Shown: positions 3,440-19,650 of the stretch, in pieces | How positions within the stretch are numbered: position 1 is the first letter of the stretch | How the letters are laid out: every line of letters begins with the position of its first letter | IMG/VR virus record: IMGVR_UViG_2823670853_000002 | DNA length: 64,000 nucleotides | Direction: 5' to 3' (one strand) | Source: a virus | Lineage: Duplodnaviria > Heunggongvirae > Uroviricota > Caudoviricetes | Notes under the pieces: model-generated | Seen by the model: only the letters and a program-made list of their open reading frames with translations | Told to the model about the DNA's origin: nothing | The model's database searches: none | Position numbers and translations under genes: made by a program

Positions 3440-3443
3440 TAAT

Positions 3444-4507: not shown

Positions 4508-4526
4508 AGCGTTTTCACCTCAATAA

Positions 4527-4546
4527 TACTGTTCATTTATACAGTA
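4527..4546. promoter_or_regulatory. LexA (SOS) box in the divergent humD / 4682 ORF promoter region
   Basis: TACTGTTCATTTATACAGTA fits the CTGT-N8-ACAG LexA consensus; 20 bp upstream of humD start. Confidence 0.75.
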
Positions 4547-4681
4547 TACATTAAAGAGACACCTTTGGTGCAAACGCGTTACGTACATCAACCACCGCTG
4601 ATGATTTTGTGCTCTTTGCTACTATTCATCACCAACGGATCAGCGTAACCTCGTTGCCAATCAGTTAATAAGGAATTAGCT

Positions 4682-5254: not shown

Positions 5255-5260
5255 CTACCG

Positions 5261-5524
5261 CTATTTCTTTACGGCATCATCTTTCTGATATGCCGGATCG
5301 CTCCCTTTTGGCAACTGGAGGCTTAACTGCCGGTAGTGCCGTAGCCGTTCCATGAAATAGGTGCGCAGATTCTCTGGTTGCTCGCGGGCTACCTGTTCAG
5401 CTATGACAGGTATGTTCAATCGCTCTTTGTACGCCACACCGCTGGCAGCCAGATCAACGTTAACCTTATCCCGTTCTTCCTGACTTTTAGCTGCAATATT
5501 CCAATCGTACATATCAAATCCCAT
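5261..5524 (-). CDS. hot: Hot, homolog of DNA polymerase III theta subunit (HolE)
   Basis: 87 aa; [43 protein letters not shown] aligns closely with E. coli theta ([43 protein letters not shown]). Confidence 0.85.
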
Positions 5525-5961
5525 CCAGAATAATTGAGTAACGACTATTATTTAACCAGCAAAGTAACTTTTAATTTTTTTTCTTCTCCCATTGATTTTT
5601 GTGCACAGCTTATCTGCCTTGCCGTGCGCAGAATCAACTTTTTTCTTCCTGATTTATCCACAAAGTTATGCACTTGCAAGAGGGCCATTTTCTAAATATT
5701 GTGATGTTTCACAAATGAAATGAATTTTGATTAATGAAGATAAGGAGAAAATTTGAGATGCAATCATGACGTTAATAGATAGGGTCTGCATTACAGACCC
5801 CATCCGCATCAAGGAATTAGCCGTTCCCTGATGTTGTTCCGAAAACATGTGCCGTAAGCTCACGTTAACGACTTTCTTTCACCGAATCCAACTATATAGG
5901 GGTTGGGTTTCTACGTCAACGTGAGCAAGTGCTCCTTTACATTTGACAAGGAACCACCTTA

Positions 5962-6093
5962 ATGACTGCTTTTTTTCAGTTCCTGAGTGCATTTTTAGAT
6001 GCGCCTGTTATTAGCCAGATTCTGGCGATCATCCTCATCATCGTTTTGATATTGCTTTTAAGGTCAGTAAAAAATGGAATTATGCACTGGCTT
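5962..6093 (+). CDS. Small hydrophobic protein (43 aa), unlisted short ORF
   Basis: MTAFFQFLSAFLDAPVISQILAIILIIVLILLLRSVKNGIMHWLT; preceded by AGGAACCACC RBS-like sequence; single predicted TM segment. Confidence 0.3.
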
Positions 6094-6173
6094 ACTTAAT
6101 GTTCAGTGAAACATTAAAATCTCCTTGATGTGGAAACAATCATTTTCTGTATGTGCTGGTGGGTACCTGTAGT

Positions 6174-6536
6174 TCAGCTTTCGTTGGCATTTAACTTCGT
6201 CTTTGCTTTCTCCACCAGCAACTTCCAGATGCCTATTTCATTAGCAGCCGCCTTGATGGCGGCATAAAAAGCATCTTGCTGATCGTAACGCTGAATCTGT
6301 TTTTTCAGTTTTACCTCCACCAATTTAATTTCATTACGTGCTTTCTGAAGCCGCAGCGCCGCCCGGTTACGTCTGTTCTTGTATAGCGCGTTAATCTCTG
6401 ACAATTGCTTTAATTTACCAGCCTGACTGCGGATTATCGCCTCTCTGACTTCTGCCGTGCGTCTCATCTGATCTCTTAAGAGTTCACCGTTTTCGATAAT
6501 TCTTTCAAGGTGTTTGATGTGATCTGCAACTCTCAT
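6174..6536 (-). CDS. Hypothetical coiled-coil protein
   Basis: 120-aa ORF, stop overlaps next gene start (operon-like packing); no motif recognised. Confidence 0.4.
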   Translation of the reverse strand: MRVADHIKHLERIIENGELLRDQMRRTAEVREAIIRSQAGKLKQLSEINALYKNRRNRAALRLQKARNEIKLVEVKLKKQIQRYDQQDAFYAAIKAAANEIGIWKLLVEKAKTKLNANES

Positions 6537-7177
6537 ACTTCACCCTCGCTTGTATCGCCAGCATCCACCAGCGGCAATAAAGCCCTGGCCATCTTATGAA
6601 CCAATAGTGCATCAATAATGCCAAGCGTATGCCCCGGCTTAATGTTTAATGCCGCCTCAAGGTGACACCTTTCCAAGCCACTTTTCTCGGCTTGTTTATG
6701 ATGATCTGGCGTAATAACGTCGCCCAAAACACGGCTAATTCTTTCTCGTAATTGCTGGGTGCCCGCACACTTGATCGCTGTATCGTGGAGACGGTTAACC
6801 AGTTCGCGATAAACATGCGGTTTAATGCGGATACGTTCACCGGTGACGCCCTTTCCTGGCCCTGGCACCGAACTATCCGGAATATCCGGATAGTTGCCAG
6901 CCTCGTAAGCTACCCGCAGCCAGTGCATGAATGTTTCAGTGGACACACAACCACAGTCCACATCGATTTTCCCGCGTTGCTGTTCCAGCCACTGCTCAAA
7001 ATTCAATCTACACGTATTACTTTCATGTTGCTCTTTTTGTCTCAAGGCCAGCATCTGCTGGGCTATTTCCAATACTTCATCTGCCGTATATCCAGCACCG
7101 TGACCATACATTTCGATACGGGAAATAATCTCTGATATACGCTCTTCAGTGATTCTGGTCATTTCTTTTTGCGCCAT
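6533..7177 (-). CDS. Hypothetical protein
   Basis: 214-aa ORF tightly packed in the leftward operon; no motif recognised. Confidence 0.4.
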   Translation of the reverse strand: MAQKEMTRITEERISEIISRIEMYGHGAGYTADEVLEIAQQMLALRQKEQHESNTCRLNFEQWLEQQRGKIDVDCGCVSTETFMHWLRVAYEAGNYPDIPDSSVPGPGKGVTGERIRIKPHVYRELVNRLHDTAIKCAGTQQLRERISRVLGDVITPDHHKQAEKSGLERCHLEAALNIKPGHTLGIIDALLVHKMARALLPLVDAGDTSEGEV

Positions 7178-7533
7178 TTCTTTTCACATTCCTTAATCCA
7201 TTTTTCAATGTTCATTTTGGCAATATCAGTCATTCCATCACCTAAGAAATACTTTTTCCGGTATGTCTTGCACTTAAACCACACTACAACAGCCACCAGC
7301 CAGAAAATAAAAGGCCATACAGCAATACCAACGACAGCCGCGATAAAGCCCAATAGCCATAAATGAAGCTCTCCAACTTCTGTTTCCGGCAATATTCTTA
7401 AAGAATTAAACAGCAGGCTGAACGAATGGTCGTATGCATTGGCAGTATAAGACATGCAATCCATATAATTAAAGTCATAGCCTGCGGCTGCCGCCCATAA
7501 TGGGCGGTCAAGAAAATGTTTTAGTGTCATCAT
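7159..7533 (-). CDS. Predicted membrane protein
   Basis: 124 aa with hydrophobic stretch LWLLGFIAAVVGIAVWPFIFWLVAVVVWF and lysine-rich C-terminus. Confidence 0.4.
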   Translation of the reverse strand: MMTLKHFLDRPLWAAAAGYDFNYMDCMSYTANAYDHSFSLLFNSLRILPETEVGELHLWLLGFIAAVVGIAVWPFIFWLVAVVVWFKCKTYRKKYFLGDGMTDIAKMNIEKWIKECEKKWRKKK

Positions 7534-7539
7534 ATAAAT

Positions 7540-7929
7540 TTAAGGTTCAGACCAGTTATCTTCAATAGCAATGCTTAATCTTTGTAGCCATTCTGCTAAT
7601 TTCAGCATTGCTTCTCTTTCGCTTAAACCACGAGGAAAATCATCAAGCGAAATTGTTGGCTTGAAGCCCCCGTAATTATCCATTTCAACTGTCAGATTTT
7701 GTTCCAGCACGGTATTTCTTACGCGGCTATTGTGCCGGAGCAAATATACTGAGCGTGATTTATTGGTTTTGTGGTCTAGCTTATATTCGGTAAGTATCAT
7801 CTGGCTTTTGCCATGATTATTACCTCTCCACATACTTACCTCACTTAATAAAACAACTCCATGCGTAGTTGATGATTTTTTCCCACGTAATATAAATCTG
7901 CACTCCGGCAGTAAAACCAAAGCCAACAA
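7540..7929 (-). CDS. Hypothetical protein (start uncertain)
   Basis: 129-aa ORF; an alternative unlisted 41-aa hydrophobic ORF (MSKVNVLIFSAIVGFGFTAGVQIYITWEKIINYAWSCFIK) occupies 7838-7963 in another frame. Confidence 0.3.
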   Translation of the reverse strand: MLALVLLPECRFILRGKKSSTTHGVVLLSEVSMWRGNNHGKSQMILTEYKLDHKTNKSRSVYLLRHNSRVRNTVLEQNLTVEMDNYGGFKPTISLDDFPRGLSEREAMLKLAEWLQRLSIAIEDNWSEP

Positions 7930-8011
7930 TTGCTGAAAAAATCAAAACATTTACTTTTGACATTATAAATTTTCTCTCGGTGTCGTAGGTGATAGCACCA
8001 TAATTGATAAT

Positions 8012-8263
8012 TTAGTGAGTTAGCAGTTCCATTTTTTGGATGATTTCCGCATGAGCATCATCGTTATCAACACTTAACTCGTTTAATGCCTCTCGCACTA
8101 CATCAACTTCTTCTGGTTGGAAGAAGTCATCTCGGTAGTCACCAAATAGAACCGAAACAAGCCTGCCACCAGCAACATCAAGATTGGCGCTAACAGGTGG
8201 CTCTTTACCATCCTCAAATTCGACTACAAAAGTTAATTTTCCCATCGTTACCACCAGCGACAA
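8012..8263 (-). CDS. Small acidic hypothetical protein
   Basis: 83-aa ORF in operon context. Confidence 0.35.
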   Translation of the reverse strand: MSLVVTMGKLTFVVEFEDGKEPPVSANLDVAGGRLVSVLFGDYRDDFFQPEEVDVVREALNELSVDNDDAHAEIIQKMELLTH

Positions 8264-8330
8264 ATTGAATACAAACCCAGTGCTGCCGCCATCACAATTC
8301 CTACCGTTGCGAATGCTTCAGGCCAGCTCA

Positions 8331-8591
8331 TTATCTCACCTCCAGTCTCCATACCGCCTGACCAATCCGGCTGGCATGGGTATCTTTGGATACTGTTCCA
8401 TCTTTAGCCATCTCCATAAGAATTTTGCGCAAATCTGCCGAACGCCATTCTTCATCAGGAAATTCCTTCTCCATTGCCAACCGCAGATTCCAGGTTGCCA
8501 TCCTGAATGGATATTCCCCGCCGAGAGCTTTATCTTGCAGGGCAGCCCGGGAACGCATCACCTGCAAAACCTTCTCTTTTACATCCATCAT
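8331..8591 (-). CDS. Hypothetical protein
   Basis: 86 aa from internal Met whose ATG overlaps the upstream stop (ATGA); the longer 134-aa frame overlaps the neighbour by 148 nt. Confidence 0.35.
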   Translation of the reverse strand: MMDVKEKVLQVMRSRAALQDKALGGEYPFRMATWNLRLAMEKEFPDEEWRSADLRKILMEMAKDGTVSKDTHASRIGQAVWRLEVR

Positions 8592-9391
8592 TTCGCCTCC
8601 TGCGGCGGTTCTGGTAGCGGCATCCAGTACAAGGCGTTCCCTAACCACGATAAAGTGCCGTCGCTCAACTCCACGTATTCCCCTTGTACCTGTCCTGCCA
8701 TATACTCGCCGTGCTTTGAATAAATTAAAATCCAATCATCTTGAGCGGGCATTCGCTCACTACAGCTTATCCAACCATCCGGAGTTACCGGATAGTTGCC
8801 ATTCACAAGGTCAGCTCGAACATATAGCGTGTCATCATGGTGCTGATTGTGGCTGCACCACGTTAATTCGCTTAACTCGCCATCTTCTGGCCATACTCCA
8901 GCTGTTTGCAGCCAGATATGGGCTGGCGCATCTTGGCAAGGTGTATTAACTGGCAACTTGTAAGTTTGGCTTACAGGTTGGCTACCCTGAAGCATGGCAG
9001 CGTGGCAGGCATCCTCAACGTTCTTCACTGCATCTGCGCAGTAGTTATAGCGATTGCATTCCACTAATTTCTGCTTGAGGTTTTCAATTGCTAACTCGAT
9101 TTCATCCGGCACTACCGGCTCTGGTTGGATAGTGACGTTGGCAAAGGCAGCACGCAAACCGGCCTTAATTTCCTCTACTTCATCAGCGCCTAGCGATGAA
9201 TCTGACAATGCGTGATGGAATGCGTAAGCCATGTCGTCGTTTACTGCAACCGGTTCTGCTTCCAGCGATGCCAGAGCAATTCGTGCCAGTTCTTCCGCTT
9301 CTTCTGCTGGCAGTACAACGTTGCTACCAGGTCCGTATGTTTCGCGCCACTGCTTGATTGTCAGCAGTCGCTCTTTGGTAATAGTGATCAT
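8588..9391 (-). CDS. Phage protein with DUF551-like C-terminal domain
   Basis: 267 aa; C-terminus WISCSERMPAQDDWILIY...WMPLPEPP resembles the DUF551 signature common in enterobacterial prophages. Confidence 0.4.
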   Translation of the reverse strand: MITITKERLLTIKQWRETYGPGSNVVLPAEEAEELARIALASLEAEPVAVNDDMAYAFHHALSDSSLGADEVEEIKAGLRAAFANVTIQPEPVVPDEIELAIENLKQKLVECNRYNYCADAVKNVEDACHAAMLQGSQPVSQTYKLPVNTPCQDAPAHIWLQTAGVWPEDGELSELTWCSHNQHHDDTLYVRADLVNGNYPVTPDGWISCSERMPAQDDWILIYSKHGEYMAGQVQGEYVELSDGTLSWLGNALYWMPLPEPPQEAK

Positions 9392-9903
9392 GCCGCGTTT
9401 CCTTCTTTCTTATTAACAATTACACCGTCATATATTTCATTAAGGTGCCCTCTCAACTCCATGCGCCTTAATGCAGATAACATGTAATCGCATTCAACCT
9501 GCTTATTTCCAGTAAATGGCTTATCGTCAGGATTACCCCAACAGCAATTACCCTTGGGCCACCCATGTACTTTCCGTACTCTTCCGTTAACAACGTGAAG
9601 TAATCCCCAGCCAGGTGGTAAATCCTCAACTGAAATAATTCCCGGCTCACTAATAAAGAATCGCCAGTCGCCCATTCCAAGAGATGGATTTTTACGAAAA
9701 CGCTTTTTCCTATCTGCCAACAAGTCAGCACGAGAACACTTCGCCTCTATCAGGCATGATGCTGAATTTCTGAATCCCATAGCATCTGGCTGTTCTCCGG
9801 TACTGGTTACAGCTATAAAGCGGTCATGAAAACAAACCTTGAACCCGTTGCGCTTAAGGAACTTATACGCAATCTGACAGAGTTCGCGGTGTGTTAACGC
9901 CAT
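9388..9903 (-). CDS. Predicted PD-(D/E)xK-fold nuclease-like protein
   Basis: 171 aa from MALTHRELCQ; candidate catalytic motif ...GEQPDAMGF...CLIEAKCS (D...E-x-K). Confidence 0.4.
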   Translation of the reverse strand: MALTHRELCQIAYKFLKRNGFKVCFHDRFIAVTSTGEQPDAMGFRNSASCLIEAKCSRADLLADRKKRFRKNPSLGMGDWRFFISEPGIISVEDLPPGWGLLHVVNGRVRKVHGWPKGNCCWGNPDDKPFTGNKQVECDYMLSALRRMELRGHLNEIYDGVIVNKKEGNAA

Positions 9904-9904
9904 A

Positions 9905-10093
9905 TCACTCTCCTTTAGTGCGCAAGTGGTTTTTCCAGCGGTTTTGCGCCGCGCTGGGCTTTTTGCAAAAACCACAATCCATCATCCCGTAATATTTCAT
10001 CAACCCCATCCGTCGGTTGCTGAGTCTCACCCACTGCCAGACGCCAGGAGCGTTTCTACGAACTAACAGAATCTTTGCTTTACGGTTTTTCAT
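9905..10093 (-). CDS. Small basic protein, paralog 3 of a tandem trio
   Basis: 62 aa starting MKNRKAK; ATG overlaps stop of the upstream paralog (ATGA). Confidence 0.3.
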   Translation of the reverse strand: MKNRKAKILLVRRNAPGVWQWVRLSNRRMGLMKYYGMMDCGFCKKPSAAQNRWKNHLRTKGE

Positions 10094-10266
10094 CTTACAG
10101 CGTACCCTTTCTTCCGCCTGTTCTGTGACGCAGTAGGCTTACGCTTTGCGGCAAAAGCCACCTGACCAAATGGATGGAGTACCGCTATCTTATGGTTGCT
10201 AATAACCAGCTCCACCACACGCACAGGTCGCTGTAAAAAAAGTCGTTTTGCCTTACGGTTTTTCAT
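10090..10266 (-). CDS. Small basic protein, paralog 2 of a tandem trio
   Basis: 58 aa starting MKNRKAK; shares a ~20-bp nucleotide repeat at its start with paralog 3; ATGA overlap with upstream ORF. Confidence 0.3.
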   Translation of the reverse strand: MKNRKAKRLFLQRPVRVVELVISNHKIAVLHPFGQVAFAAKRKPTASQNRRKKGYAVR

Positions 10267-10439
10267 CGCTTTGCTCTCCTGCGTCTCTTTGCTGCTCGTC
10301 GTGCCGCTGCAATACCGGTATGGCGGCGCTTTGGTGCCGGGATGATGTTGTCAGCCATCAGGACATACGGCTTTGCAATTAGCGCAGAAGCCCAAAAACG
10401 AGTCGGGTACGGTAACAAGCCGATACATGCCACACGCAT
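10263..10439 (-). CDS. Small basic protein with arginine-rich C-terminus
   Basis: 57 aa ending AARRAAKRRRRAKR; ATG overlaps stop of the Ea22-like gene (TAATG). Confidence 0.3.
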   Translation of the reverse strand: MRVACIGLLPYPTRFWASALIAKPYVLMADNIIPAPKRRHTGIAAARRAAKRRRRAKR

Positions 10440-11191
10440 TACTCACCTCCTTTGATGCGAATGCCTGCGGCGCGGATTGCAGCGATGACTTCAGAAACTT
10501 TGTATGCCATTACCGTTTGGTAATCATCGTGAAAATCTGTTCGATGAAGCATGCTGCTACGTTCCGGGAGCGATATTTCCCGAGCATCCAGTTCCTTAAC
10601 GCGTTCCTCCAGTTCGTAGACCCTGCATTGTTCTCTATCATCAATCAGATATACCCCAAGACATTCGCTTTCTACCCAACCGCCAAAATCATGATCGTAA
10701 CGCTCACATGAAAACTCACCGTCACCGTCCTTTGTTGGAATGGTGTAACTATCTAATGGGCCACCATATGTCGGCACATTTCCCAATGTTGGATGCTCAA
10801 TCCACATGAAAAATGCACGTCCGGTTATTGGGCAAATATCTGGCCGCCATTGGTTACGAACAGCCTTGGTTTCGGATAATTCTTCAGCGTGTTGTTTTAC
10901 TTCCTCAAGCTCAACTCTCAGCTTCCCTACCGTTAGCGCAATATCCTCGTTCTCCTGATCGCGGCGTTTTATGTATTGCTGGTTTCTTTCCCGTTCATCC
11001 AGCAGCGCCAGCACGGTTTCTGGTCCGGTCAGAAATTTGAAGGCGTTGAGCGCATCAATATCCACGCCGTAATCTTTAAGTTCCTGTTCGCTTATCAGAT
11101 CATCATCAACTGGCAACATTAACAGGCGTTCCATTGCCGGAATTGCACGCTCTGCCGCCTCACGCAGTGCCTGATAGTCAATCTTGCTCAC
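10439..11191 (-). CDS. Ead/Ea22-like family protein
   Basis: 250 aa starting MSKIDYQALREAAERA..., the characteristic N-terminus of Ea22-like prophage proteins. Confidence 0.6.
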   Translation of the reverse strand: MSKIDYQALREAAERAIPAMERLLMLPVDDDLISEQELKDYGVDIDALNAFKFLTGPETVLALLDERERNQQYIKRRDQENEDIALTVGKLRVELEEVKQHAEELSETKAVRNQWRPDICPITGRAFFMWIEHPTLGNVPTYGGPLDSYTIPTKDGDGEFSCERYDHDFGGWVESECLGVYLIDDREQCRVYELEERVKELDAREISLPERSSMLHRTDFHDDYQTVMAYKVSEVIAAIRAAGIRIKGGE

Positions 11192-11919
11192 TGGTTGCCT
11201 CCTTTTCGAAGCTCTGCGGCAAAGTCAGTGGCATGTTCACCGAGTAGTTTCCAGTTATCGCGTATATCAGATGCAAATGACTGTTCGGATTTTGAGTTAC
11301 ATTTCTGTGCAAACATCTCCAATCCCTGCGCCCGCACTTCAGCCAGGCATTTGCGAAACTCGGAAACGTACTGTTCGACGCTCATTCCCCAGCTAAGTGG
11401 ACATTCATTGAATGTTTCGCCTTCGTGCTCTTCATCAGGTAGCTCTTTGGTAAAGAACTCACGCTCAATGGCGTGGAGTGTGTCAGCAAAACGACGTAAG
11501 TTACTCAAACCTACCGTAATGGAGAATTCAGGAGCATCACATCCGACGCCCATCTGCTGATAAACGGCGGTTTTGAAGGCCTTAAGCCCCGCATTCTCCG
11601 CCACCAGCGCCGCGAGATTAGTCTCAAGCTCTGCAATTCGACACATAGCATCAATATTTGTGTCCTCCAGGCGCTTAATTTCACCAAGCAGCTCCAGTGC
11701 AACCTTTGGGTTGAACGCGGCAACATAACGAGCGTTATTCTCTGCGTTTTCCTGTCCATCAAAGCCGGGCCATTTGATAACGTCTCCACATCGTTTATCA
11801 CCGGGTGTATGCACCGCATATGTACCAGTACCCGGCGAAATAAATGCGACCCATTCGTCTGGTGTTGCCTTTTCTGCCGCCTCACGCAGTACCTGATAGT
11901 CAATTGTCATTCTCGCCAT
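11188..11919 (-). CDS. Ead/Ea22-like family protein (second tandem copy)
   Basis: 243 aa, MARMTIDYQVLREAAEKATPDEW...; N-terminal module shared with the adjacent paralog, C-terminus divergent. Confidence 0.6.
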   Translation of the reverse strand: MARMTIDYQVLREAAEKATPDEWVAFISPGTGTYAVHTPGDKRCGDVIKWPGFDGQENAENNARYVAAFNPKVALELLGEIKRLEDTNIDAMCRIAELETNLAALVAENAGLKAFKTAVYQQMGVGCDAPEFSITVGLSNLRRFADTLHAIEREFFTKELPDEEHEGETFNECPLSWGMSVEQYVSEFRKCLAEVRAQGLEMFAQKCNSKSEQSFASDIRDNWKLLGEHATDFAAELRKGGNQ

Positions 11920-12533
11920 CCTTCACAGTTGTAATCACGACAGCCTTCAAAATCATATGGGCTGTACTGCCAGGTGATTTTTCCGCAATGCGGACAATTC
12001 CAACGCACCTTCCCGCTTCGCGACTTCTTTCTTCTGTTCTGCTTTTTCAACCAGTCAGGCATGACCAAACCTGCGCCCTGAACCATTGTTCTGCGGTTAA
12101 ATTTATTGATATTGAACGTCCGGCGCTTTGCTGCATCAGCAATGGAAAATGGCAACCAAACTATTCCTGGTTCGTTTTTGTTGGCGACGCTAAAGATGGT
12201 CGCTTTACTGAAGTCATCTGTTGGCAATCCACCGTGTTGAAGCCAGTAAACATCGTTGCCGTTCCAGCTACCTTTTTTGTAGGCCACATACGCAGTGCAA
12301 TCTGACTCAATCAGGCTTTCTGTAGGGATGTACTGGCAATCAACGTGCCACACAGCCATTGCATCCACACTATCGGCACAAACAGGCTGATCGATATCTC
12401 GCCCACAATTCCAGGCTTTTTGGGCTTCTTCCAGCGTGTAAACATGAGCGCGATCGATATCAGAACTGTAACCATTGCCGTTATGGCAATGGAATGAGGC
12501 GTTATTACCCACAGTTTCACGCAAGCACATCAT
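11907..12533 (-). CDS. Hypothetical protein with C-terminal zinc-ribbon-like motif
   Basis: Start placed at internal Met (MMCLRETVG); C-terminus CPHCGK...C..C; longer frame would overlap the upstream gene. Confidence 0.35.
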   Translation of the reverse strand: MMCLRETVGNNASFHCHNGNGYSSDIDRAHVYTLEEAQKAWNCGRDIDQPVCADSVDAMAVWHVDCQYIPTESLIESDCTAYVAYKKGSWNGNDVYWLQHGGLPTDDFSKATIFSVANKNEPGIVWLPFSIADAAKRRTFNINKFNRRTMVQGAGLVMPDWLKKQNRRKKSRSGKVRWNCPHCGKITWQYSPYDFEGCRDYNCEGWRE

Positions 12534-12547
12534 GTAAAAACGGTTAC

Positions 12548-12787
12548 TCACTGGATGCCTCCTTGGTGAAGTTGCGCTGCGATGCACGAAAAAAAAGACT
12601 CCCGAGTATGACTGTTAAGAGCTGGTGCGAACGCCTCGTTAAGAACGGCGGCATCACAGCCGTCATCAATATAGAGCGCAATTTTTTTCTCCAGGCGCGC
12701 TTTGGCTTCCTGCAACTGCATACCCCGGCACGCACGCGGGATATAATCAGCAATTTGAGCGATAGCTTTTTCGTTCTGTTTAAACAT
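12548..12787 (-). CDS. Small hypothetical protein
   Basis: 79-aa ORF, operon-packed. Confidence 0.3.
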   Translation of the reverse strand: MFKQNEKAIAQIADYIPRACRGMQLQEAKARLEKKIALYIDDGCDAAVLNEAFAPALNSHTRESFFSCIAAQLHQGGIQ

Positions 12788-12983
12788 GCTTCACCTCGAT
12801 AGGCTTGATGGTGTCTAACAGCAGTCGGCGGCGCGTATTTTCTGCAAAATGGCGGCGTCCAGTTTCTTTGTGGTAAAACTCGTTTTTGCCAACGACCCAC
12901 ATCCGCTCTGTTTGGTGCAGTTTTTTTACCTGCGGGCCATCTTTGGTGATCACGGTACCGGTATGGGTTTTTACGATTGTCAT
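12780..12983 (-). CDS. Small hypothetical protein
   Basis: 67-aa ORF, overlaps neighbours by a few nt. Confidence 0.3.
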   Translation of the reverse strand: MTIVKTHTGTVITKDGPQVKKLHQTERMWVVGKNEFYHKETGRRHFAENTRRRLLLDTIKPIEVKHV

Positions 12984-13858
12984 GCCACTACCTCTTCGAA
13001 TTTCAACTCCAATTGGTCACCCCAGATTTCACATGATTCGGAACACGAACCAGTATCAAACCGCTTGGCCTGCACCATCGCCTGATACAAATTTCTGTAG
13101 TCGCTGTCGGCATACATTCTGGCAATCCCGTCAAGCGTCAGGTGACCACGGTACATAACGTCTTTACCTGTTCTGCGATGACCATCCCTGACGTGTTTGC
13201 CTGTAACCAGTTCGTTAAAAACCCGCATCAGACCTGGTTCGTCTTTACATGCAAGCCCCAGCTTTTGCGTTGACTTTTTGATGCAAAAAACACAGTTCCC
13301 GAGGTGCTCCGGGATTTGCAAATCAAAAGGTTGTTTTCGCCACCACCGGATAACATCCGACTTATCAAAATCTGACAGCTCGGCAAGATACCGGACGCCC
13401 GGTTTCGGTTTCAGCCTACGGGGTTCGTCCGCACGAATACCGAGCCATGTGATGTAATTCCCTCGCCCAAAATGGTCATCGCAATATTTCGTGAAAGGGG
13501 TGAGTTTTAGCCTGTCAGTACAGAACGCGCCGCCGATGTATGGCGTACCGTACTTTTTAACCATGTCCATAAACGGTTTAAGCACCGGCGTTCGCGTCTG
13601 AATATCCTTTGGTCCCCATTCCGTATAACCATTTGGCTGCCCAAGTTCTGGATTTATATCGACCTGCAACACCGTTAGCGGTACGTTCCAGAACTTCACA
13701 ACCTCACGAATAAAGCGATACGTCAGAGGATGTTCACAGCCGGTATCCATAAAAATGAAATGGACGCTAGCGCCAGCTTTTCGCTGTGCTTCCATCAGAT
13801 GAACGAGATAAGCCGATGTTCGTCCACCTGAAAAGCTGACGACTTGATGCATACTCAC
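12980..13858 (-). CDS. Phosphoadenosine phosphosulfate (PAPS) reductase-like protein
   Basis: 292 aa with the PP-loop motif SFSGGRTS near the N-terminus, as in PAPS reductase/DndC-like ATP pyrophosphatases. Confidence 0.7.
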   Translation of the reverse strand: MSMHQVVSFSGGRTSAYLVHLMEAQRKAGASVHFIFMDTGCEHPLTYRFIREVVKFWNVPLTVLQVDINPELGQPNGYTEWGPKDIQTRTPVLKPFMDMVKKYGTPYIGGAFCTDRLKLTPFTKYCDDHFGRGNYITWLGIRADEPRRLKPKPGVRYLAELSDFDKSDVIRWWRKQPFDLQIPEHLGNCVFCIKKSTQKLGLACKDEPGLMRVFNELVTGKHVRDGHRRTGKDVMYRGHLTLDGIARMYADSDYRNLYQAMVQAKRFDTGSCSESCEIWGDQLELKFEEVVA

Positions 13859-13861
13859 GGT

Positions 13862-14590
13862 TTATTCCTGAATGCGCTTAAACTCAATTACCCATACCCA
13901 GGGATTAGCGTTCCAGCTTTCTTCACCATAGATGGATTCCCACAGACGCTGGAACGCAACCTTGGCCATTGCGAAATCCCCCTTGGGAGTAAGGAATGTT
14001 TCCGGGTAATCAGGAAGCAAACTTCCAGCAGGCGGAACGCCCTCAGCCCCTGCATCGCATTCGCTGATATCGTTCAACCGCTCAACGCGCACGTTGGTAA
14101 TTTCCAACAGAATGCGTGATGCCCATCGCGGCATGTGAATTGATGGACGCCACCCACCATCAAACTTTTCATTCACAGTGTGAGGTTTCCAGTCGGCATC
14201 ATCGGGTATCGACCATAAGCCGTAATCACCAGGCTTTTGCTCACAACTGGCCCGATAAATCCTTGCTGCGTTCTTCTCATCACCACGACAAAGGTTGTCG
14301 TTCCAGTCCACACTACAACCATCCTCATTGCCTAATATCGCCCATGTTTCACGAACCCAAATTCGATCGCCGACGATACCAAAGGGGCAATTGAAGACAC
14401 TGCTTACACCATCAGCCCCGTACCACTGAAAACCTGCACCAATTTTTCTAACCATCACTGGTGCTTCTGGACCAACTTCCGCAGGCTGATTTTTCATTAT
14501 CCGCCGCGTCTGCGTTTTCCTTCCTTCGATGATGGCCCGGACCATCTCATCGTTGAAAATCATGCCGCGCTCTTTCACTTCGCCTTTCAT
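13862..14590 (-). CDS. Conserved phage protein of unknown function
   Basis: 242-aa ORF; probable start at Met10 (MIFNDEMVRAIIEGRKTQTRR), an N-terminus seen in prophage proteins adjacent to PAPS-reductase-like genes. Confidence 0.4.
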   Translation of the reverse strand: MKGEVKERGMIFNDEMVRAIIEGRKTQTRRIMKNQPAEVGPEAPVMVRKIGAGFQWYGADGVSSVFNCPFGIVGDRIWVRETWAILGNEDGCSVDWNDNLCRGDEKNAARIYRASCEQKPGDYGLWSIPDDADWKPHTVNEKFDGGWRPSIHMPRWASRILLEITNVRVERLNDISECDAGAEGVPPAGSLLPDYPETFLTPKGDFAMAKVAFQRLWESIYGEESWNANPWVWVIEFKRIQE

Positions 14591-14768
14591 GCATCCCCCT
14601 TACCCATGTGCGACGATGCCGCCAAAAGTGATAGAGAACAGCCAGAAATAGATCGCGGCCATAATGATTTTGAATGCCGTGTTCATATTTTCAGCTCCTG
14701 TGATTGATTGGATACATGCCGCGCCTTGCGGCATGTTTTTATTTTCACTTTCTCTGTTTTAAAAATCA

Positions 14769-14785
14769 AGATTTATTAGAGCAAT
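14769..14785 (-). promoter_or_regulatory. C1 repressor operator-like site
   Basis: Reverse complement ATTGCTCTAATAAATCT matches 16 of 17 consensus positions; overlaps the stop of the HAD gene and precedes the next leftward genes. Confidence 0.6.
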
Positions 14786-15291
14786 TATTGTTGATGGAGA
14801 AGCGCGTTTTCATACTCCCTGACCATTAACGTAAGTACGCCGTGACTCCTGAAAACACGCGCCACTTCAATCTTATCTTCCAGCGCGAACGCGATTTTAC
14901 TTAGACCAATTTTCTTAAGGAGATCAATCTTTGCTGGGCCGTCATTTCTGTCATCGGTGGCAGGACGCATAGATAGCAAAGGCTCAGCCCCGTTTGTTAC
15001 GTGCTTACGCAACCAGGCTCGTGTTTTATCCCTGGCTATCTCACAGCGCCCGGTTACAAACCAGAGGGTGTAAATGCCGGACAACTGGCGCACCATATCA
15101 ATAACTGGAGTGATGGGAGCATCAGTGTCACAGGCAAGATTAAACTCGTTCCAGTGCTCTGTTAATGCACCTTTGCCCGGTGGTGGAAGTAAATGCAGCC
15201 TGTCTTCCGTTGCCTCTGATATCGTCCCATCAATATCTACTATGACGATGTACGGACGTTCCTGGTGTGCGTGTTTATTGAAAATACTCAA
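14785..15291 (-). CDS. HAD-superfamily phosphatase-like protein
   Basis: 168 aa; N-terminal VIVDIDGTI motif (DxDGT) typical of HAD hydrolases / polynucleotide 3'-phosphatases. Confidence 0.5.
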   Translation of the reverse strand: MSIFNKHAHQERPYIVIVDIDGTISEATEDRLHLLPPPGKGALTEHWNEFNLACDTDAPITPVIDMVRQLSGIYTLWFVTGRCEIARDKTRAWLRKHVTNGAEPLLSMRPATDDRNDGPAKIDLLKKIGLSKIAFALEDKIEVARVFRSHGVLTLMVREYENALLHQQ

Positions 15292-15363
15292 ATGCCCTCC
15301 TCATTGGACGAAAAAAATGCTGGTGGGCGCACTCCACCAGCATTAAAAGTGACACTGTAACTA

Positions 15364-16626
15364 TCAGCGAACGTAAATAGTGCCGCCGTTCTCTTTTTCC
15401 CATGCATCGCTACGTGCATAGCAAACATCGAGAAGTCTTCTTGCCGCTGTTTCCTCTAAACCCAATTCGACAACCAACTGCTCATGACGGCGGGTAACCA
15501 CATCAAACAGGGTATGCAACCCTTTAGTTGCCAGATCATCAATGAATTCCGGTTCGAACGGCAGCTCTGCATCTGCCAACATAACCTCTTGCGCCCACTC
15601 AACTCGACGGACCAATTCCGGGCGGCGGCTTTCCATCTCTTTACAGATTAATTCATGGAAGAACTCTACCCAACCTTCCGGCTGGAACTCGCGGAAAATT
15701 GCCAACGGCTGGAAGTTTGGCATCAACCATTCGTTGATTCGGATATCAATGGCATAGCCCATGTCGCAGCAGAACTGATAAGCAAAGTCCAGCTTAGAAA
15801 CGATATAAGGACGCTCGTTATTGAACTCTTTAGGCGATGAGATCCCATAAGCCAGGAGGCGCGGGAAGAAGGAGATTTGCCCTAACGTCGGATGAAGTTT
15901 GCTTGCAGGGAAACGGCGCTCAGTAATGCCATACATTTCCTTCTTGAGCGTCGCAAATTTGGCATTCTCATTAACCAGCGCGGTAACCTCTGCTTTTTTA
16001 TTAGCAAATGCCACGCGCGCCTCGCTTGCATCTTTAATAGTTTTTTTGAGCTGTTGGTTAAGGTCGGCGACCTGCTTACGCAGTTCCTGTCGCTCGCTTT
16101 TAGCTTTGTTATAGCGTTTCTCAAGGTTAAAAGGATCAAGTTTCATGATCTCTTTATATTGAGATTTTAGAGTTGAAATCTGTGAGTTCCGCAGTTCAAC
16201 CATCGCGGTCATTTCATTGAGTTTTGTTTCCAGCTCAATGCTTATACGTTCGGCATTATCAGCACGCTGGTTGGCGTCATGCGTCGCATCGTCGATCGCG
16301 TCCTGTTGCTGGCGTTTCAAATGTTCAATTTGCAGCTGAAGCTCTTCAATTTCTTTACCCTTCAGACCGAGATCCAACTGCATATTTTCAGCTGCATCTA
16401 CCAGGGAGTTATGGCTATCAGCTTCTGCGTTATAAACATCAATAAGCTGTGCGTGAAGCATCTCCGCTGACTGAACCGCATTATCAAAAAAACGTGCTGT
16501 GAGGTCATCACAACTAACGCGGCGTTGCGCGGCCCGGATGTTCTGGATAATGGCCGGGATACCGGCATTCAGGACGTCAGGGATAGATACATTTTCGATT
16601 GATTGGTTTTGTGCTGAAGTGCTCAT
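15364..16626 (-). CDS. Coiled-coil protein with uncharacterised C-terminal domain
   Basis: 420 aa; long heptad-rich central region, globular C-terminal ~180 aa without recognisable motif. Confidence 0.45.
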   Translation of the reverse strand: MSTSAQNQSIENVSIPDVLNAGIPAIIQNIRAAQRRVSCDDLTARFFDNAVQSAEMLHAQLIDVYNAEADSHNSLVDAAENMQLDLGLKGKEIEELQLQIEHLKRQQQDAIDDATHDANQRADNAERISIELETKLNEMTAMVELRNSQISTLKSQYKEIMKLDPFNLEKRYNKAKSERQELRKQVADLNQQLKKTIKDASEARVAFANKKAEVTALVNENAKFATLKKEMYGITERRFPASKLHPTLGQISFFPRLLAYGISSPKEFNNERPYIVSKLDFAYQFCCDMGYAIDIRINEWLMPNFQPLAIFREFQPEGWVEFFHELICKEMESRRPELVRRVEWAQEVMLADAELPFEPEFIDDLATKGLHTLFDVVTRRHEQLVVELGLEETAARRLLDVCYARSDAWEKENGGTIYVR

Positions 16627-16627
16627 T

Positions 16628-16846
16628 TCAAAGTTCCGTATTAGCTTGTGCTTCGGTCATTTTTCCTAAGTATGAAGGTGGAAGGACTACGCAATTTGTA
16701 TCCAGTCCCTCACCTATGGCAGCCTGTAAAATTCTGGCTAAGGTGAGTCTCTTGTTGCGATACCTGGTGATGACATGCCTGATACCGCCGGTCGGCGTAA
16801 CAAAGGCGATCAGCCAGTAGTGATATTTCCGTCGGAATGGCCACAT
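16628..16846 (-). CDS. Small hypothetical protein
   Basis: 72-aa ORF immediately downstream of the bipartite operator. Confidence 0.3.
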   Translation of the reverse strand: MWPFRRKYHYWLIAFVTPTGGIRHVITRYRNKRLTLARILQAAIGEGLDTNCVVLPPSYLGKMTEAQANTEL

Positions 16847-16860
16847 AGTGCACCTTATGG

Positions 16861-16926
16861 ATTGCTCTAATAAAAAACGTGATGAGTGTACATCACGTTT
16901 TAAAAATATGGAATTATTAGAGCAAT
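16861..16926. promoter_or_regulatory. Bipartite C1 operator-like pair flanking a palindrome
   Basis: ATTGCTCTAATAAAAAA (16861-16877, plus) and reverse complement ATTGCTCTAATAATTCA (16910-16926), each 14 of 17, bracket the inverted repeat CGTGATGAGTGTACATCACG. Confidence 0.45.
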
Positions 16927-16927
16927 A

Positions 16928-17629
16928 TTATTCTGATTCTCGCTCAAAAAACGAGCTAATGAGGGGAAGCCAATCCTCTGACACTTCGCGAGGCCGCGGT
17001 TTGCCGTGGAAAAAGATTATTCGGCAGTCCTTTGGTAATGTCCCATTCCCCCTGGAGTAACGCGCGCTCGCATATTTTGAACCAGGTTCCACAACATCGG
17101 CCTTGTAACTTACAAACCATCCTGGATACAGATCCTGAAATGCTGGTGTATCATCACCCATAACCTTCCGCAAAAACCCCTGATCACCCCAGCATTCAGT
17201 AGTAACACAACGAGCAATCCAACCTTCCGGATCTTGCCAGAATGCACTCCAGATATGCGCTTTTACACTATTTGGTATCCACAGGGCACCGCTACCACGA
17301 TATTGTGGATGGTAAAAATCCCTAAGCATGGTGAAGCTGGTTGGTGGATTCTCAAGGATTGGGCGTATATCACCGGCAATAACTGTGTCCAAATCCAGAT
17401 AGAACAGATCATCGGTTATATCCGGTCGGAACAACTCGATTTTCGCCCACCAGCCACGGCACTTTTGCCACTGGTTGATCAATGGGATAACTTTGACGCC
17501 AGGTACATGTAAACGCTTCAGGTCTGTCAGGCAAATAATTTCATAGCCTTTTGGCAGTTGATTAACCAGCCACTGCACATCGGAAGCGTTATAGTCACCA
17601 CCAGAGCGAAAAACTAAAGCAATCTTCAT
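16928..17629 (-). CDS. Putative GT-A-fold glycosyltransferase-like protein
   Basis: 233 aa; Rossmann-like start [12 protein letters not shown] and a DXD-type motif ([11 protein letters not shown]); assignment from motif only. Confidence 0.35.
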
Positions 17630-18318
17630 GCTGCACCATCACCTTTCACTTTCATCAATGTCAGGTTTCCGCAAAATACGGCACCAGTGTCGATATACTG
17701 CTGATTCCAGAATGTCTTCGGGCTTTTCACCGGAGTGTGACCAAAGATAAAACGATCTGCGCCCGAAATTTCGCCACCAATATCATCCATCGAATCACTG
17801 ATACGCTCGCGCGCCCAGACAACGTTGAAAAGCGGCACCTCCTTACCGAATTGGTATTCATTATCCGGATAGTCGGCATGGGCTATAACGATAGTTTCTT
17901 GCCCGGTGTTCAACTCAATGATATAGGGCAGACGCTTTACCAGCTCCACCAGCGCCCAGGCTAATATTTCCTGATCAGTGTCCAGCATGAAGAACCATTG
18001 TCCGCCATTCATTAGCCAGTTATTCACGTTGCCATCTGGACTTAACGCATCAATCATCAGCCGCTCATGGTTCCCCATCACTGCCCTGAACCAGGGCATC
18101 TGCAATAGTTCCAGACATTCGACATTTTCAGTACCGCGATCGATAAGGTCGCCGACCGATATCAGTAAATCCTGCGCCGGGTCAAAATCCACACGATGGA
18201 GTTCGGACATCAGTCTGGTGTAGCAACCATGCAGATCACCAACAACCCAGACATTCCTGTATTTGGTACCGTCGATACGGTGATAAATTGTGGGTGCCAT
18301 CATGTATTCTTCAGCCAT
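17626..18318 (-). CDS. Ser/Thr protein phosphatase (lambda-phosphatase-like metallophosphoesterase)
   Basis: 230 aa with GDLHG, GDLIDRG and GNHE motifs of the PPP family; occupies the position of the P1 protein phosphatase gene (ppp). Confidence 0.85.
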
Positions 18319-18926
18319 TCTTTAAGAGTCATCTGCGGAATACCTCCCATTTTCCCGCATGAAACAACGTCAATCTGTTCACGCGCAGACTGGAATAACA
18401 AAGGCAGGTGACTTAGATTTTTTGGCGTGCCGCCGGAGTGAACGCGTGGTTCTTGTGTAGCGTCAACGCCCACCAGGGCGACATGTTTGAATCCGATATG
18501 GAAAGCCAGGTTCAGAGCGCCATATGCACTATTGCCGCTGGCAATTTCATTCTCATCTTCGCAAAGTCCGAAATGTGCGGACCAGCGCCACGCCCACCAC
18601 TCGGGAGAATTCGTATTTTTTGGCTCCATGCCACGTTCAGCCACACGACGGAAGCACAGAACGCCGTCTCTGACTTCACGTTCTTTAACATCGGGTAGTG
18701 CCATGCAATAACAAACACCACGGCGACGGCGGCCACGACCAACGCGCCGCATATTGTCTAGCGATGGATCAAGTGTGAAAAAATAAGAAGCGCGGTTCAG
18801 CCAGTCGATGGCCCCATTGACCGCTATAATCGGCACTCCGCGCGGCGCAACAAAGTTTGCGGCGCTTGGGCCACTGCCGACGATAATAACGCGATCACTG
18901 CCTCTAAATTTATTCTTGGGAAACAT
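18300..18926 (-). CDS. DUF115 (MptE/Maf-like) domain protein, paralog B
   Basis: 208 aa; N-terminal [10 protein letters not shown] nucleotide-binding-like motif resembling the DUF115 signature. Confidence 0.4.
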
Positions 18927-19486
18927 TGAATTGCACTGCTCCTACTTGCATTCAAAATATGTAAATCTGCGTGTTTTTTGCGGGTATCCAGGAACTGCTG
19001 TTGCCATTTTGAAATAGACACCTGCGTTGGATTCCGTAGGGCTTGAGGGTGCGCGCCATGCCAATGAAGGCCGTTTTGCAGAGAACAGTCATAGCCGACT
19101 AATACAACTACTTCAGCCCCTGATTCAGCAGCCAGACTGATAGCCTGCGCGCCGCTATTTACCCCTTCCGCCGGTCCACAATATCGCCTGTACTCCAACG
19201 AAAATGATTTCGCCGCCGCCAGGTTGGCTGTCACTTTGCGGAATTTCCCTCCCGGTATGGTGGATCCGTATTGCTTCCACCATGACAAATCACCGGCGTA
19301 TAAGGCATAAATGTCATCGAACATCTGCCAGGAATTGTTAACCGCGATGATTGAACAGCCAGTTTTTTCTATAGCAGCACAGTCCTCACGAGTGAGTGAC
19401 GGACCGCTACCGACACAAAAAACAGTCCTAGTCGCCCTGGGTGGTATGTTCATTCTCAGCTGCAAATTCAGCCTCCAGGCGAGCAT
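18824..19486 (-). CDS. DUF115 (MptE/Maf-like) domain protein, paralog A
   Basis: 220 aa; FCVGSGPSL motif; overlaps paralog B by ~100 nt in a different frame. Confidence 0.4.
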   Translation of the reverse strand: MLAWRLNLQLRMNIPPRATRTVFCVGSGPSLTREDCAAIEKTGCSIIAVNNSWQMFDDIYALYAGDLSWWKQYGSTIPGGKFRKVTANLAAAKSFSLEYRRYCGPAEGVNSGAQAISLAAESGAEVVVLVGYDCSLQNGLHWHGAHPQALRNPTQVSISKWQQQFLDTRKKHADLHILNASRSSAIQCFPRINLEAVIALLSSAVAQAPQTLLRRAECRL

Positions 19487-19634
19487 TCATTTCAGCGATT
19501 ACCGGGTCCACTACAGCATCTGCTTCCTGTTCATTACGCGGCATGATCGATGCCAGCGATTCATAATTAGCCTTGGATGACACGATTATTCTCCCGATGT
19601 TAATGTGCGCTGTATCAAAGATACACATATGCAC
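19428..19634 (-). CDS. Small hypothetical protein (start uncertain)
   Basis: 68-aa ORF downstream of the VRR-NUC gene; acidic C-terminal half. Confidence 0.25.
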   Translation of the reverse strand: MHMCIFDTAHINIGRIIVSSKANYESLASIMPRNEQEADAVVDPVIAEMNARLEAEFAAENEHTTQGD

Positions 19635-19650
19635 TAATTAATTTATTATT

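Follow-up and report, generated by a model that had tools for sequence, protein, structure and literature searches.

Maf flagellin glycosyltransferases (DUF115/PF01973, e.g., PDB 5MU5) have about 600 aa, including additional domains at both the N and the C terminus, and they use CMP-pseudaminic or CMP-legionaminic acid as donor. The E. coli KdoIII transferase WaaZ (GT73) uses CMP-Kdo and has LPS, not protein, as its own acceptor, while Cst-I and Cst-II of Campylobacter (GT42) are sialyltransferases, and LgtC, glycogenin, GlyE and the Skp1 alpha-galactosyltransferase represent the retaining GT8 enzymes. Among viruses, virion glycosylation cassettes of mycobacteriophages have reportedly been described by Freeman et al. 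in 2023, and the chlorovirus PBCV-1 possesses the capsid glycosyltransferase A64R. These systems belong to Gram-positive-type or algal hosts, and their enzymes are of different families from the P1 proteins PmgO, PmgP and PmgQ considered here. We know of no DUF115 member in either of these glycosylation systems.

The window analysed here, a stretch of 64,000 nucleotides, derives from a P1-like phage-plasmid with an identity to P1 of 98–99%. Positions 14785–19486 hold pmgO, pmgP, ppp, pmgQ, pmgR, pmgS and pap (Table 1), in which a sequence-only reading had recognized one C1-controlled operon encoding two DUF115-like paralogs, a GT-A-like protein and two phosphatases, with a PAPS-reductase-like protein just downstream. 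The ORFs named in that reading are all present on the minus strand where it had placed them; two further genes of the span, pmgR and pmgS, had been omitted, and pmgS has invariably been found 3' of pmgR in P1-like elements. Functionally, just three of the genes, pmgO, pmgP and pmgQ, make up a module, and with a probability of about 0.5 we consider it to be a late glycan-building cassette that would act on protein, probably a virion protein.

Table 1. Positions of genes and regulatory elements of the cassette region within the window.
Feature	Position	Strand	Description
C1 operator Op83 (Oppp)	19628–19644	+	from the P1 record; upstream of pmgN-pmgO-pmgP-ppp-pmgQ
pmgN	19428–19583	−	51-aa ORF at the head of the tightly overlapping unit; P1 annotation
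pmgO	18824–19486	−	DUF115/Maf/Cst-fold glycosyltransferase-like; optional second cassette member
pmgP	18300–18926	−	DUF115-like paralog, the more conserved one; core cassette member
ppp	17626–18318	−	lambda/PrpA-type Ser/Thr metallophosphatase; variable slot between pmgP and pmgQ
pmgQ	16928–17629	−	GT8-like (retaining-type GT-A) glycosyltransferase-like, invariant DxD; core cassette member
Boundary element	16861–16926		Op86a and Op86b flanking a terminator-like hairpin, plus predicted promoter PpmgR
C1 operator Op86a	16910–16926	−	between pmgQ and pmgR
C1 operator Op86b	16861–16877	+	between pmgQ and pmgR
pmgR	16628–16846	−	P1 annotation; deletion phenotype in PMC9024508
pmgS	15364–16626	−	420-aa coiled-coil protein
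Intrinsic-terminator-like hairpin	15316–15344	−	between pmgS and pap; U7 run
pap	14785–15291	−	PNKP-type (3'-phosphatase) HAD enzyme with a DIDGT motif; presence differs between P1-like elements
C1 operator Op88	14769–14785	−	1 mismatch; overlaps the pap stop codon; controls the next unit (pmgT)
PAPS-reductase-like PP-loop ORF	12980–13858	−	lambdoid mosaic block, outside the P1 module

The proposal of one operon has not survived the inspection of its regulatory elements. Instead of one promoter-operator without internal terminators or operators, the span contains Op86a and Op86b, has Op88 at the end of pap, and is interrupted by two stable, terminator-like hairpins with U-runs behind them, one 3' of pmgQ (−13.4 kcal/mol, z −4.6) and one 3' of pmgS (−18.1 kcal/mol, z −5.0); it is a mosaic of at least three predicted transcription units. 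In the window, Op83 agrees with the 17-bp consensus in 13 of its 17 bases and thus fell outside our operator scan, which allowed 3 mismatches; it was found via the P1 record. The unit that it precedes opens with pmgN, which overlaps pmgO by 59 nt, has no Pfam match and is confined to P1-like loci. In P1, the unit of pmgO, pmgP and pmgQ is annotated as C1-controlled (early), not as purely late, and the P1 record places the late promoter LPpmgL upstream on the same strand as the cassette.

In comparison to Maf, PmgO and PmgP are bare catalytic domains of about 200 aa, with an identity of only 16%. Their scores against the Pfam model MptE-like (DUF115, PF01973) are 23.6 and 20.7 bits, respectively, and both stay below the gathering threshold of 34.6, but the model is matched by 35 of 36 PmgO-family and all 36 PmgP-family members (E ≤ 1; best 1.7e-11 and 8.6e-7), which speaks for the earlier DUF115 assignment; the fusion P0051 reaches 44.6 bits. 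The description of both as overlapping paralogs (the genes share 103 nt) also holds, and their relation is real but distant: BLASTP has aligned a 36-aa motif only, and the profile-profile comparison yields a probability of 98% with E 2.5e-13 over 163 columns. The PmgP family amounts to 617 clusters at 50% identity. The best structural match of the two proteins is Maf, over 163 residues, and they have the Rossmann-like fold common to Maf, MptE and Cst. The motifs GSGPSL, NSG and GYDCS of PmgO align to GNGPSL, TSG and SGIDF of Cst-II, weakly and with E about 0.2, a value at which the sequence matches to Cst-I and Cst-II are not significant, and the PmgO profile covers, again weakly, two CMP-binding motif regions of Cst-II. 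Histidines are invariant at H141 and H143 in PmgO and at H173 in PmgP, and the catalytic base of Cst-II is a histidine. The fold of these DUF115-superfamily enzymes recurs in Maf flagellin glycosyltransferases, in Cst sialyltransferases and in the Kdo transferase WaaZ, so that PmgP, and PmgO as its optional paralog, would most likely transfer a CMP-activated 2-keto-3-deoxy sugar acid.

Regarding the donor, no sugar-nucleotide synthesis genes have been found travelling with the cassette, those for the CMP-sugars of Maf being absent here as well, and because of this the donors would be host metabolites, probably CMP-Kdo-type and UDP-hexose sugars. To our knowledge, E. coli K-12 makes no CMP-sialic acid, so that a literal sialyltransferase annotation is unlikely to be right. 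CMP-Kdo, present in every cassette host, is as far as we know the sole CMP-sugar of E. coli K-12, which makes Kdo the likeliest acid sugar. WaaZ matches the same Pfam model as PmgO and PmgP at a similar sub-threshold score (29.6 bits, E 6.9e-7, residues 1–195), and WaaZ_KDO_III is among the precomputed Pfam entries for the O-P fusion, where it is marked faint. Direct comparison of the profiles shows little similarity to WaaZ (E about 2e-3, probability 12–14%, C-terminal motif region only), which leaves Kdo as a putative donor.

The description of PmgQ as a DXD-motif GT-A-like protein can be narrowed to a GT8-like enzyme; it has a GT-A fold with the DxD metal site and a nucleotide-sugar site. 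It is shorter than the retaining GT8 enzymes named above, 14–17% identical to them, and forms a family of its own (phrog_1962); no Pfam family, Glyco_transf_8 included, has been matched at E ≤ 0.1, and hhalign gives a probability of 6% for the PmgQ family against E. coli WaaO. The donor of this GT8-like DxD enzyme is most likely a UDP-sugar, from which PmgQ would transfer a hexose. One might also regard PmgO and PmgP not as glycosyltransferases but as pyrophosphokinases of the MptE or thiamine-pyrophosphokinase kind, with a pterin, thiamine, a nucleotide or a similar small molecule as substrate. This is very unlikely in view of the structural match to Maf, the alignment of motifs with the CMP-sugar site of Cst-II, and the constant linkage, up to fusion, with a GT8-like enzyme as well as with sugar-type O-methyltransferases, and no pterin or thiamine genes lie nearby.

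This linkage has been followed in loci grouped at 85% PmgP identity, resulting in 37 clusters (28 non-P1 and 9 P1-like). PmgQ stands beside PmgP in each of the 24 non-P1 clusters whose flanks are long enough, PmgO does so in 19 of the 28, and both do so in 9/9 P1-like clusters; the hosts comprise Gamma-, Beta- and Alphaproteobacteria, Bacteroidota and Gemmatimonadota. Natural fusions have been observed as O+P, P+Q, Q+P and Q+P+methyltransferase, and in phage XacN1 a TylF-type O-methyltransferase is fused to Q. The companions of the cassette in other phages are methyltransferases, of TylF, FkbM and small-molecule types, or further glycosyltransferases. Co-occurrence in unrelated phages, even across phyla, and fusion thus characterize O, P and Q as a conserved module, and for these three the idea of a modification pathway rather than of random genes is retained. 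It fails for Ppp, Pap and the PAPS reductase: neither phosphatase occurs in any of the 28 non-P1 PmgP clusters, and both vary even among P1-like elements (Ppp in 5/9 clusters, Pap in 2/9).

The family assignments of both phosphatases are nevertheless correct. Ppp matches Metallophos (PF00149) with 59 bits and the PrpA/PrpB-type model NF008516 with 272 bits, below its equivalog cut-off of 326; its translation carries GDLHG, GDLIDRG and GNHE, all three metallophosphatase motifs being found also in E. coli PrpA/PrpB, and according to the P1 record it is 64% identical to lambda protein phosphatase. Pap exceeds the cut-off of HAD_PNKP (PF25109, 44.1 versus 27.6 bits) with its nucleophile motif D19-I-D-G-T, matches phrog_415 'polynucleotide kinase' at E 5.7e-56, and has Pnkp1 as nearest solved sequence (E 0.036). 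It shares DxDGT with the HAD 3'-phosphatase domain of T4 and Clostridium PNKP and comes without a kinase or ligase partner. Within the HAD enzymes, Pap is closest to the polynucleotide 3'-phosphatase (PNKP) branch rather than to sugar-phosphate phosphatases.

If the five enzymes and the PAPS reductase formed one pathway, as the sequence-only reading had it, the phosphatases would process phosphorylated glycan or small-molecule intermediates. In P1, ppp indeed overlaps both of its neighbours, pmgP with 19 nt and pmgQ with 4 nt, and is thus translationally coupled within the unit, and several P1-like lineages, with PmgP identities as low as about 73%, retain the order O-P-Ppp-Q. We regard such a pathway as improbable, since beyond the distribution outside P1-like elements, Ppp and Pap are missing from 4/9 and 7/9 P1-like clusters, the P1 relative D6 has kept ppp without O, P and Q, no phosphatase is present among the fusions found, and Pap lies behind a terminator-like hairpin and resembles nucleic-acid 3'-phosphatases. 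In one P1 sublineage, the variable slot between pmgP and pmgQ has received the gene of Ppp, a lambda-type phosphatase and not a pathway member, and the two phosphatases are lineage-specific passengers. The PAPS-reductase-like ORF exists downstream as described, but it is a lambdoid mosaic insert and no member of the pathway: it lies within a Stx-phage-like block, is absent from reference P1, and has been found in 3 of 80 P1-like IMG/VR loci.

The target had been left open between virion proteins, host surface and DNA, as undecidable from the sequence; the comparative context favours a protein, probably of the virion, over DNA. In phages, the cassette usually lies within head or late genes, directly 3' of an HK97-type capsid gene in 7 clusters and elsewhere 3' of portal or MuF genes, at the lysis-terminase junction in phiNP, and in jumbo phages in front of giant PKD-domain genes and those for the tail-sheath stabiliser and the tail sheath. 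In Pseudescherichia chromosomes it is found at five loci among genes for inverse autotransporters and Big_1 (Ig-domain) adhesins. These locations, in late or virion regions on the phage side and beside Ig-domain adhesin genes in a single bacterial genus, make a protein the most likely acceptor. Morons, too, typically lie in late regions, and such a position is no proof of a virion target. No Ig-domain acceptor has been identified in P1, P1 is said to lack decoration proteins, and in the literature no report of P1 virion glycosylation has been found, the virion proteome paper being without mention of it.

The LPS core is the receptor of P1, and the cassette could remodel LPS or another envelope glycan of the host during lytic growth, with PmgP and PmgO as WaaZ-like Kdo transferases and PmgQ as a WaaO/WaaJ-like GT8 enzyme that together would change the core oligosaccharide; this would keep progeny from being lost on debris or would block superinfection. 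Every cassette host is an LPS-producing diderm. The one portion of LPS that hosts so diverse have in common is Kdo2-lipid A, which could account for the strong conservation of PmgP. The WaaZ-driven addition of KdoIII accompanies outer-core truncation (PMC6358824). We consider this possibility rather unlikely, as placement inside head-gene clusters and overlap with structural genes suit virion modification better, the Pseudescherichia genes lie among adhesin rather than LPS genes, and the similarity to WaaZ and WaaO is at the superfamily level only; moreover, the unit is repressed in the lysogen, which argues against lysogenic conversion.

Glycosylation of phage DNA as an anti-restriction hypermodification appears least probable. 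Phage DNA glycosyltransferases exist, some of them reportedly acting with methyltransferases (bioRxiv 10.1101/2023.12.21.572611), and P1 is heavily invested in anti-restriction. However, no base-hydroxymethylating or oxidising enzyme stands beside the cassette in any locus examined, the companion methyltransferases are of TylF, FkbM and small-molecule types, and the cassette occurs also in a non-phage adhesin locus. Antirestriction has been unchanged in 24 P1 knockouts without plaquing defect, from a collection that includes the pmgO, pmgP and pmgQ deletions (PMC9024508).

For the favoured protein-directed cassette, PmgP, together with PmgO where present, would add the acid sugar and PmgQ the hexose, building a short glycan; other phages would add to these enzymes either a sugar O-methyltransferase or one more glycosyltransferase. 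The acceptor in P1 would be a virion protein, and its modification would take place in the cytoplasm during the late phase of infection. No plating defect has resulted from deleting pmgO, pmgP and pmgQ or from knocking them down by CRISPRi, which fits an accessory decoration.

Between positions 14000 and 21000 the window shares 98-99% identity with phage P1 and with three close relatives of it (P7, RCS47 and SJ46); the region is an already known, annotated part of a classical phage, whose pmg genes have carried the label 'putative morphogenetic function' since 2004. The genes have been placed by mapping onto the curated P1 record (see table), with pmgN, pmgM and pmgL upstream of the studied span and a pmgT-like gene downstream. 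A sequence-only reading had described two DUF115-like paralogs, a GT-A-like protein and two phosphatases as one operon and one modification pathway, joined by a PAPS reductase. Its open reading frames and coordinates are confirmed by the mapping, while pmgR and pmgS were missing from its description; the observation has thus proved largely correct, and its interpretation holds for three genes, pmgO, pmgP and pmgQ, and fails for the remainder.

Features of the region in window coordinates
Feature	Coordinates	Strand	Basis or remark
pmgN	19428-19583		P1 gene
pmgO	18824-19486	minus	P1 record mapping
pmgP	18300-18926	minus	P1 record mapping
ppp	17626-18318	minus	P1 record mapping
pmgQ	16928-17629	minus	P1 record mapping
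pmgR	16628-16846	minus	P1 record mapping
pmgS	15364-16626	minus	P1 record mapping
pap	14785-15291	minus	P1 record mapping
Op83	19628-19644		C1 operator
Op86a, Op86b and hairpin	16861-16926		inverted operators
Intergenic hairpin	14714-14736	plus	between pap and pmgT
28-codon ORF	14600-14686	minus	unannotated
PAPS reductase	12980-13858		ORF
Lambdoid block	~9247-14002		mosaic insert

The supposed single operon is broken up by C1 operators at three sites and by two terminator-like hairpins. In the P1 record, the operators are located upstream of pmgN (Op83), between pmgQ and pmgR (Op86a/b, annotated with the promoter PpmgR) and at the pap end, ahead of pmgT (Op88); a consensus scan has recovered Op86a/b and Op88 in the window, and at Op83 the window agrees with the consensus in 13 of its 17 bases. 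Of the hairpins, each followed by a U-run, the one behind pmgQ, flanked by Op86a and Op86b, folds at −13.4 kcal/mol (z −4.6 versus shuffled sequences) and the one separating pmgS from pap at −18.1 kcal/mol (z −5.0). The tightly overlapping unit is confined to pmgN-pmgO-pmgP-ppp-pmgQ (overlaps of 59, 103, 19 and 4 nt); in P1 it is divergent from the tail/baseplate operon and has the late promoter LPpmgL upstream on the same strand. Op86a and Op86b have been observed in inverted orientation on either side of the hairpin directly 3' of pmgQ, and C1 bound there, or a loop joining the two operators, could affect termination or read-through into pmgR-pmgS. Between pap and pmgT, a further strong terminator-like hairpin of 10 pairs and a T-run has been seen on the plus strand, with no plus-strand gene near it; the minus-strand fold reaches −16.3 kcal/mol and is devoid of a U-run. 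Between Op88 and pmgT, where the P1 record holds no CDS, an ORF of 28 codons (MNTAFKIIMAAIYFWLFSITFGGIVAHG) is preceded by a CAGGAG Shine-Dalgarno-like sequence and is strongly hydrophobic, and it could encode a small membrane peptide.

The PAPS reductase has been excluded from the pathway, as it lies in a lambdoid insert, is absent from this region of reference P1 and is carried by only 3 of 80 P1-like IMG/VR loci. The match to reference P1 breaks off within the pmgT homolog at ~14002, and lambdoid Stx phages match most of 9247-13850; the gene is therefore a mosaic insert outside the conserved P1 set. The lambdoid block, which also contains Ea22-like and DUF551 genes, takes the place of pmgU, pmgV and the 3'-terminal part of pmgT in P1; a few P1 variants, MH422554 among them, show the same arrangement.

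The two phosphatases have likewise been separated from the three remaining genes. Ppp belongs to the lambda/PrpA-type metallophosphatases and has each of their three signature motifs; Pap is a HAD enzyme, best matched by the PNKP 3'-phosphatase domain family. Pap is not an acid phosphatase, and a KdsC-like function (Kdo-8-phosphate phosphatase), which would have linked it to a Kdo pathway, found no support; against PDB chains Pap has given nothing significant (best E 0.036, designed repeat proteins set aside). In a six-frame ORF scan with the P1 proteins as queries, Ppp has been detected in five and Pap in two of nine P1-like clusters, and each in 0/28 non-P1 clusters. In the P1 relative D6, ppp is found in a different neighbourhood and pmgO, pmgP and pmgQ are absent; no phosphatase fusion has been seen among the fusion proteins of the three families. 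That the whole span encodes one pathway is much less likely than a separate three-gene cassette, and setting Ppp and Pap apart should end their reading as sugar-pathway enzymes. In the jumbo phages XacN1 (locus L189, 1-410) and RAS14 (locus L190, 1-850), a metallophosphoesterase gene of the Ser/Thr phosphatase family lies at ~7 kb distance from the cassette, on the far side of a pair of ribonucleotide reductase genes, and on a Sinomicrobium contig (L100, 9397-12092) the cassette also adjoins ribonucleotide reductase genes; this nearness may be coincidental.

Regarding the enzymes themselves, PmgO and PmgP match the Pfam MptE-like model (formerly DUF115) below its cut-off of 34.6 bits, with 23.6 and 20.7 bits over ~35 residues each, and PmgQ has no Pfam match. 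Families have been assembled out of a large protein collection, with 51 hits to PmgO, 39 to PmgQ and 327 to PmgP, and at this level MptE-like is matched by 35 of 36 PmgO-family members (best E 1.7e-11) and by all 36 PmgP-family members (best E 8.6e-7). By BLASTP the two proteins share only a 36-residue N-terminal motif; profile-profile comparison, run without the natural O-P fusion P0051, has aligned 163 columns with a probability of 98% and an E of 2.5e-13, and on these alignments PmgO and PmgP are judged genuine but distant paralogs. The PmgO profile weakly aligns with two nucleotide-sugar motif regions of Cst-II (GNGPSL; TSG...SGIDF), and the KdoIII transferase WaaZ of E. coli matches MptE-like at 29.6 bits, so that three of the four characterised branches of the fold transfer CMP-activated keto-deoxy sugar acids. 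A role of PmgO and PmgP as pyrophosphokinases is much less likely. Equating PmgO/PmgP with WaaZ, or PmgQ with WaaO, gave weak hhalign results against the single E. coli sequences, and the claim is consequently kept at the superfamily level. Searches of PDB chains with PmgO alone and with the PmgO and PmgP profiles have returned nothing significant, NCBIfam holds no model for PmgO, PmgP, PmgQ or Pap, and a BFVD fold search has retrieved uncharacterised phage proteins only. RefSeq and PHROGs label PmgO 'alpha-2,3-sialyltransferase' and PmgQ 'glycosyltransferase', yet the host of PmgO lacks CMP-sialic acid.

Co-occurrence of the genes has been examined across the fetched loci. A first IMG/VR scan with a PmgP alignment yielded 80 near-identical P1 copies and was uninformative in this respect; IMG/VR was rescanned with a divergent first sequence, and a one-genome-per-species collection was added. 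Six-frame ORFs of all fetched loci have been searched with HMMs for the three families and with P1 proteins, and the loci have been made non-redundant at 85% PmgP identity, giving 37 clusters. PmgO and PmgQ are each present in 9/9 P1-like clusters, and in four P1-like lineages pmgO-pmgP-pmgQ is contiguous without ppp. Among the 28 non-P1 clusters, PmgQ occurs in 24, all four misses having less than 1 kb of flank, and PmgO in 19; a SAM- or FkbM-type methyltransferase is present in 10 and a further glycosyltransferase in eight. Between pmgP and pmgQ the content of the slot varies: a methyltransferase, in phage IME392 a GT-B enzyme, and in P1 ppp. Fusions join PmgO to PmgP (P0051), PmgP to PmgQ (P0218, P0287), PmgQ to PmgP (P0309), PmgQ to PmgP and a methyltransferase (P0268), a methyltransferase to PmgP (P0308) and a TylF-type O-methyltransferase to PmgQ (XacN1, RAS14). 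Hosts include Enterobacterales, Pseudomonas, Zhongshania, Microbulbifer, Methylophilaceae, Ochrobactrum/Brucella and Brevundimonas, and further carriers are Xanthomonas/Stenotrophomonas jumbo phages, one Bacteroidota MAG and one Gemmatimonadota MAG.

Many Gram-negative phages carry the cassette within their virion-gene regions, and the PmgP family numbers 617 clusters at 50% identity. In HK97-like prophages it lies directly 3' of the major capsid gene, ahead of connector or head-closure genes; at other loci it follows portal or MuF genes or adjoins terminase, in phiNP Rz and terS flank it, and in jumbo phages the genes that follow it encode the tail sheath, a tail-sheath stabiliser and proteins of >1000 aa, among them one with a PKD domain. 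The three genes encode a conserved, often fused set of enzymes with glycosyltransferase folds, accompanied by sugar-type methyltransferases in late or virion regions; pmgO, pmgP and pmgQ form one portable, putative glycosylation cassette, and the comparative evidence defines it as widespread in phages and previously undescribed. Modification of DNA by such an enzyme set is much less likely. At five Pseudescherichia loci with no phage genes near, the three genes lie scattered among those for an inverse-autotransporter adhesin and other Big_1 proteins. On these chromosomal contigs (L088-L092, e.g., L088, 226-14416), the adhesin has 1213 aa with IAT_beta and seven Big_1 domains, the PmgO, PmgP and PmgQ homologs occur in three different orientations, and three other Big_1 proteins are encoded; this may be a bacterial adhesin-glycosylation locus. 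Two IMG/VR contigs (L113 and L116, ~2660-11360) carry terminase, portal, PmgO, PmgP, a second GT-A-like gene and PmgQ, in L113 followed on the opposite strand by a P2 GPA-type replication gene, and look like a small P2/P4-related element with the cassette.

We infer that the cassette would build a short glycan on a protein, in P1 probably a virion protein, for which PmgP and PmgO would use a CMP-activated ulosonic acid and PmgQ a UDP-hexose. For the acid, Kdo is the likeliest candidate, since the cassette brings along no genes for donor synthesis and CMP-Kdo is the only donor of this kind that E. coli K-12 is known to make. A bolder reading is that P1 and hundreds of other phages of Gram-negative hosts would attach to one of their virion proteins, probably the capsid, a short Kdo-containing and often methylated glycan, made in the cytoplasm from the host LPS precursors CMP-Kdo and UDP-hexose by a portable PmgP(+PmgO)/PmgQ cassette, which bacteria would have borrowed for Ig-domain adhesins; we give this a probability of roughly one in five. 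LPS is a serious rival as acceptor; the position among virion genes fits a virion protein better.

Our literature search has found nothing relevant on PmgO, PmgP or PmgQ function or on DUF115 in phages, and no paper on P1 glycosylation or on nonulosonic or Kdo glycosylation of virions. In P1, plating is unaffected by deletion or CRISPRi knockdown of pmgO, pmgP, ppp, pmgQ, pmgS and pap; in the CRISPRi data pmgN is essential, with an EOP of 1.4e-2, and pmgR is not, both calls being contradicted by the P1 deletion study. The cassette provides a concrete hypothesis for pmgO, pmgP and pmgQ that is testable at once, since in-frame deletions of these genes already exist (PMC9024508). If LPS is the target, a lytic-phase receptor-editing strategy would emerge. 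If a virion protein is the target, phage virion glycosylation would extend from mycobacteriophages to coliphages, with a bearing on phage immunogenicity, stability and P1-based delivery vectors, and a Kdo glycan on the virion would give the classical coliphages their first virion glycosylation system and show Kdo in a new role attached to protein.
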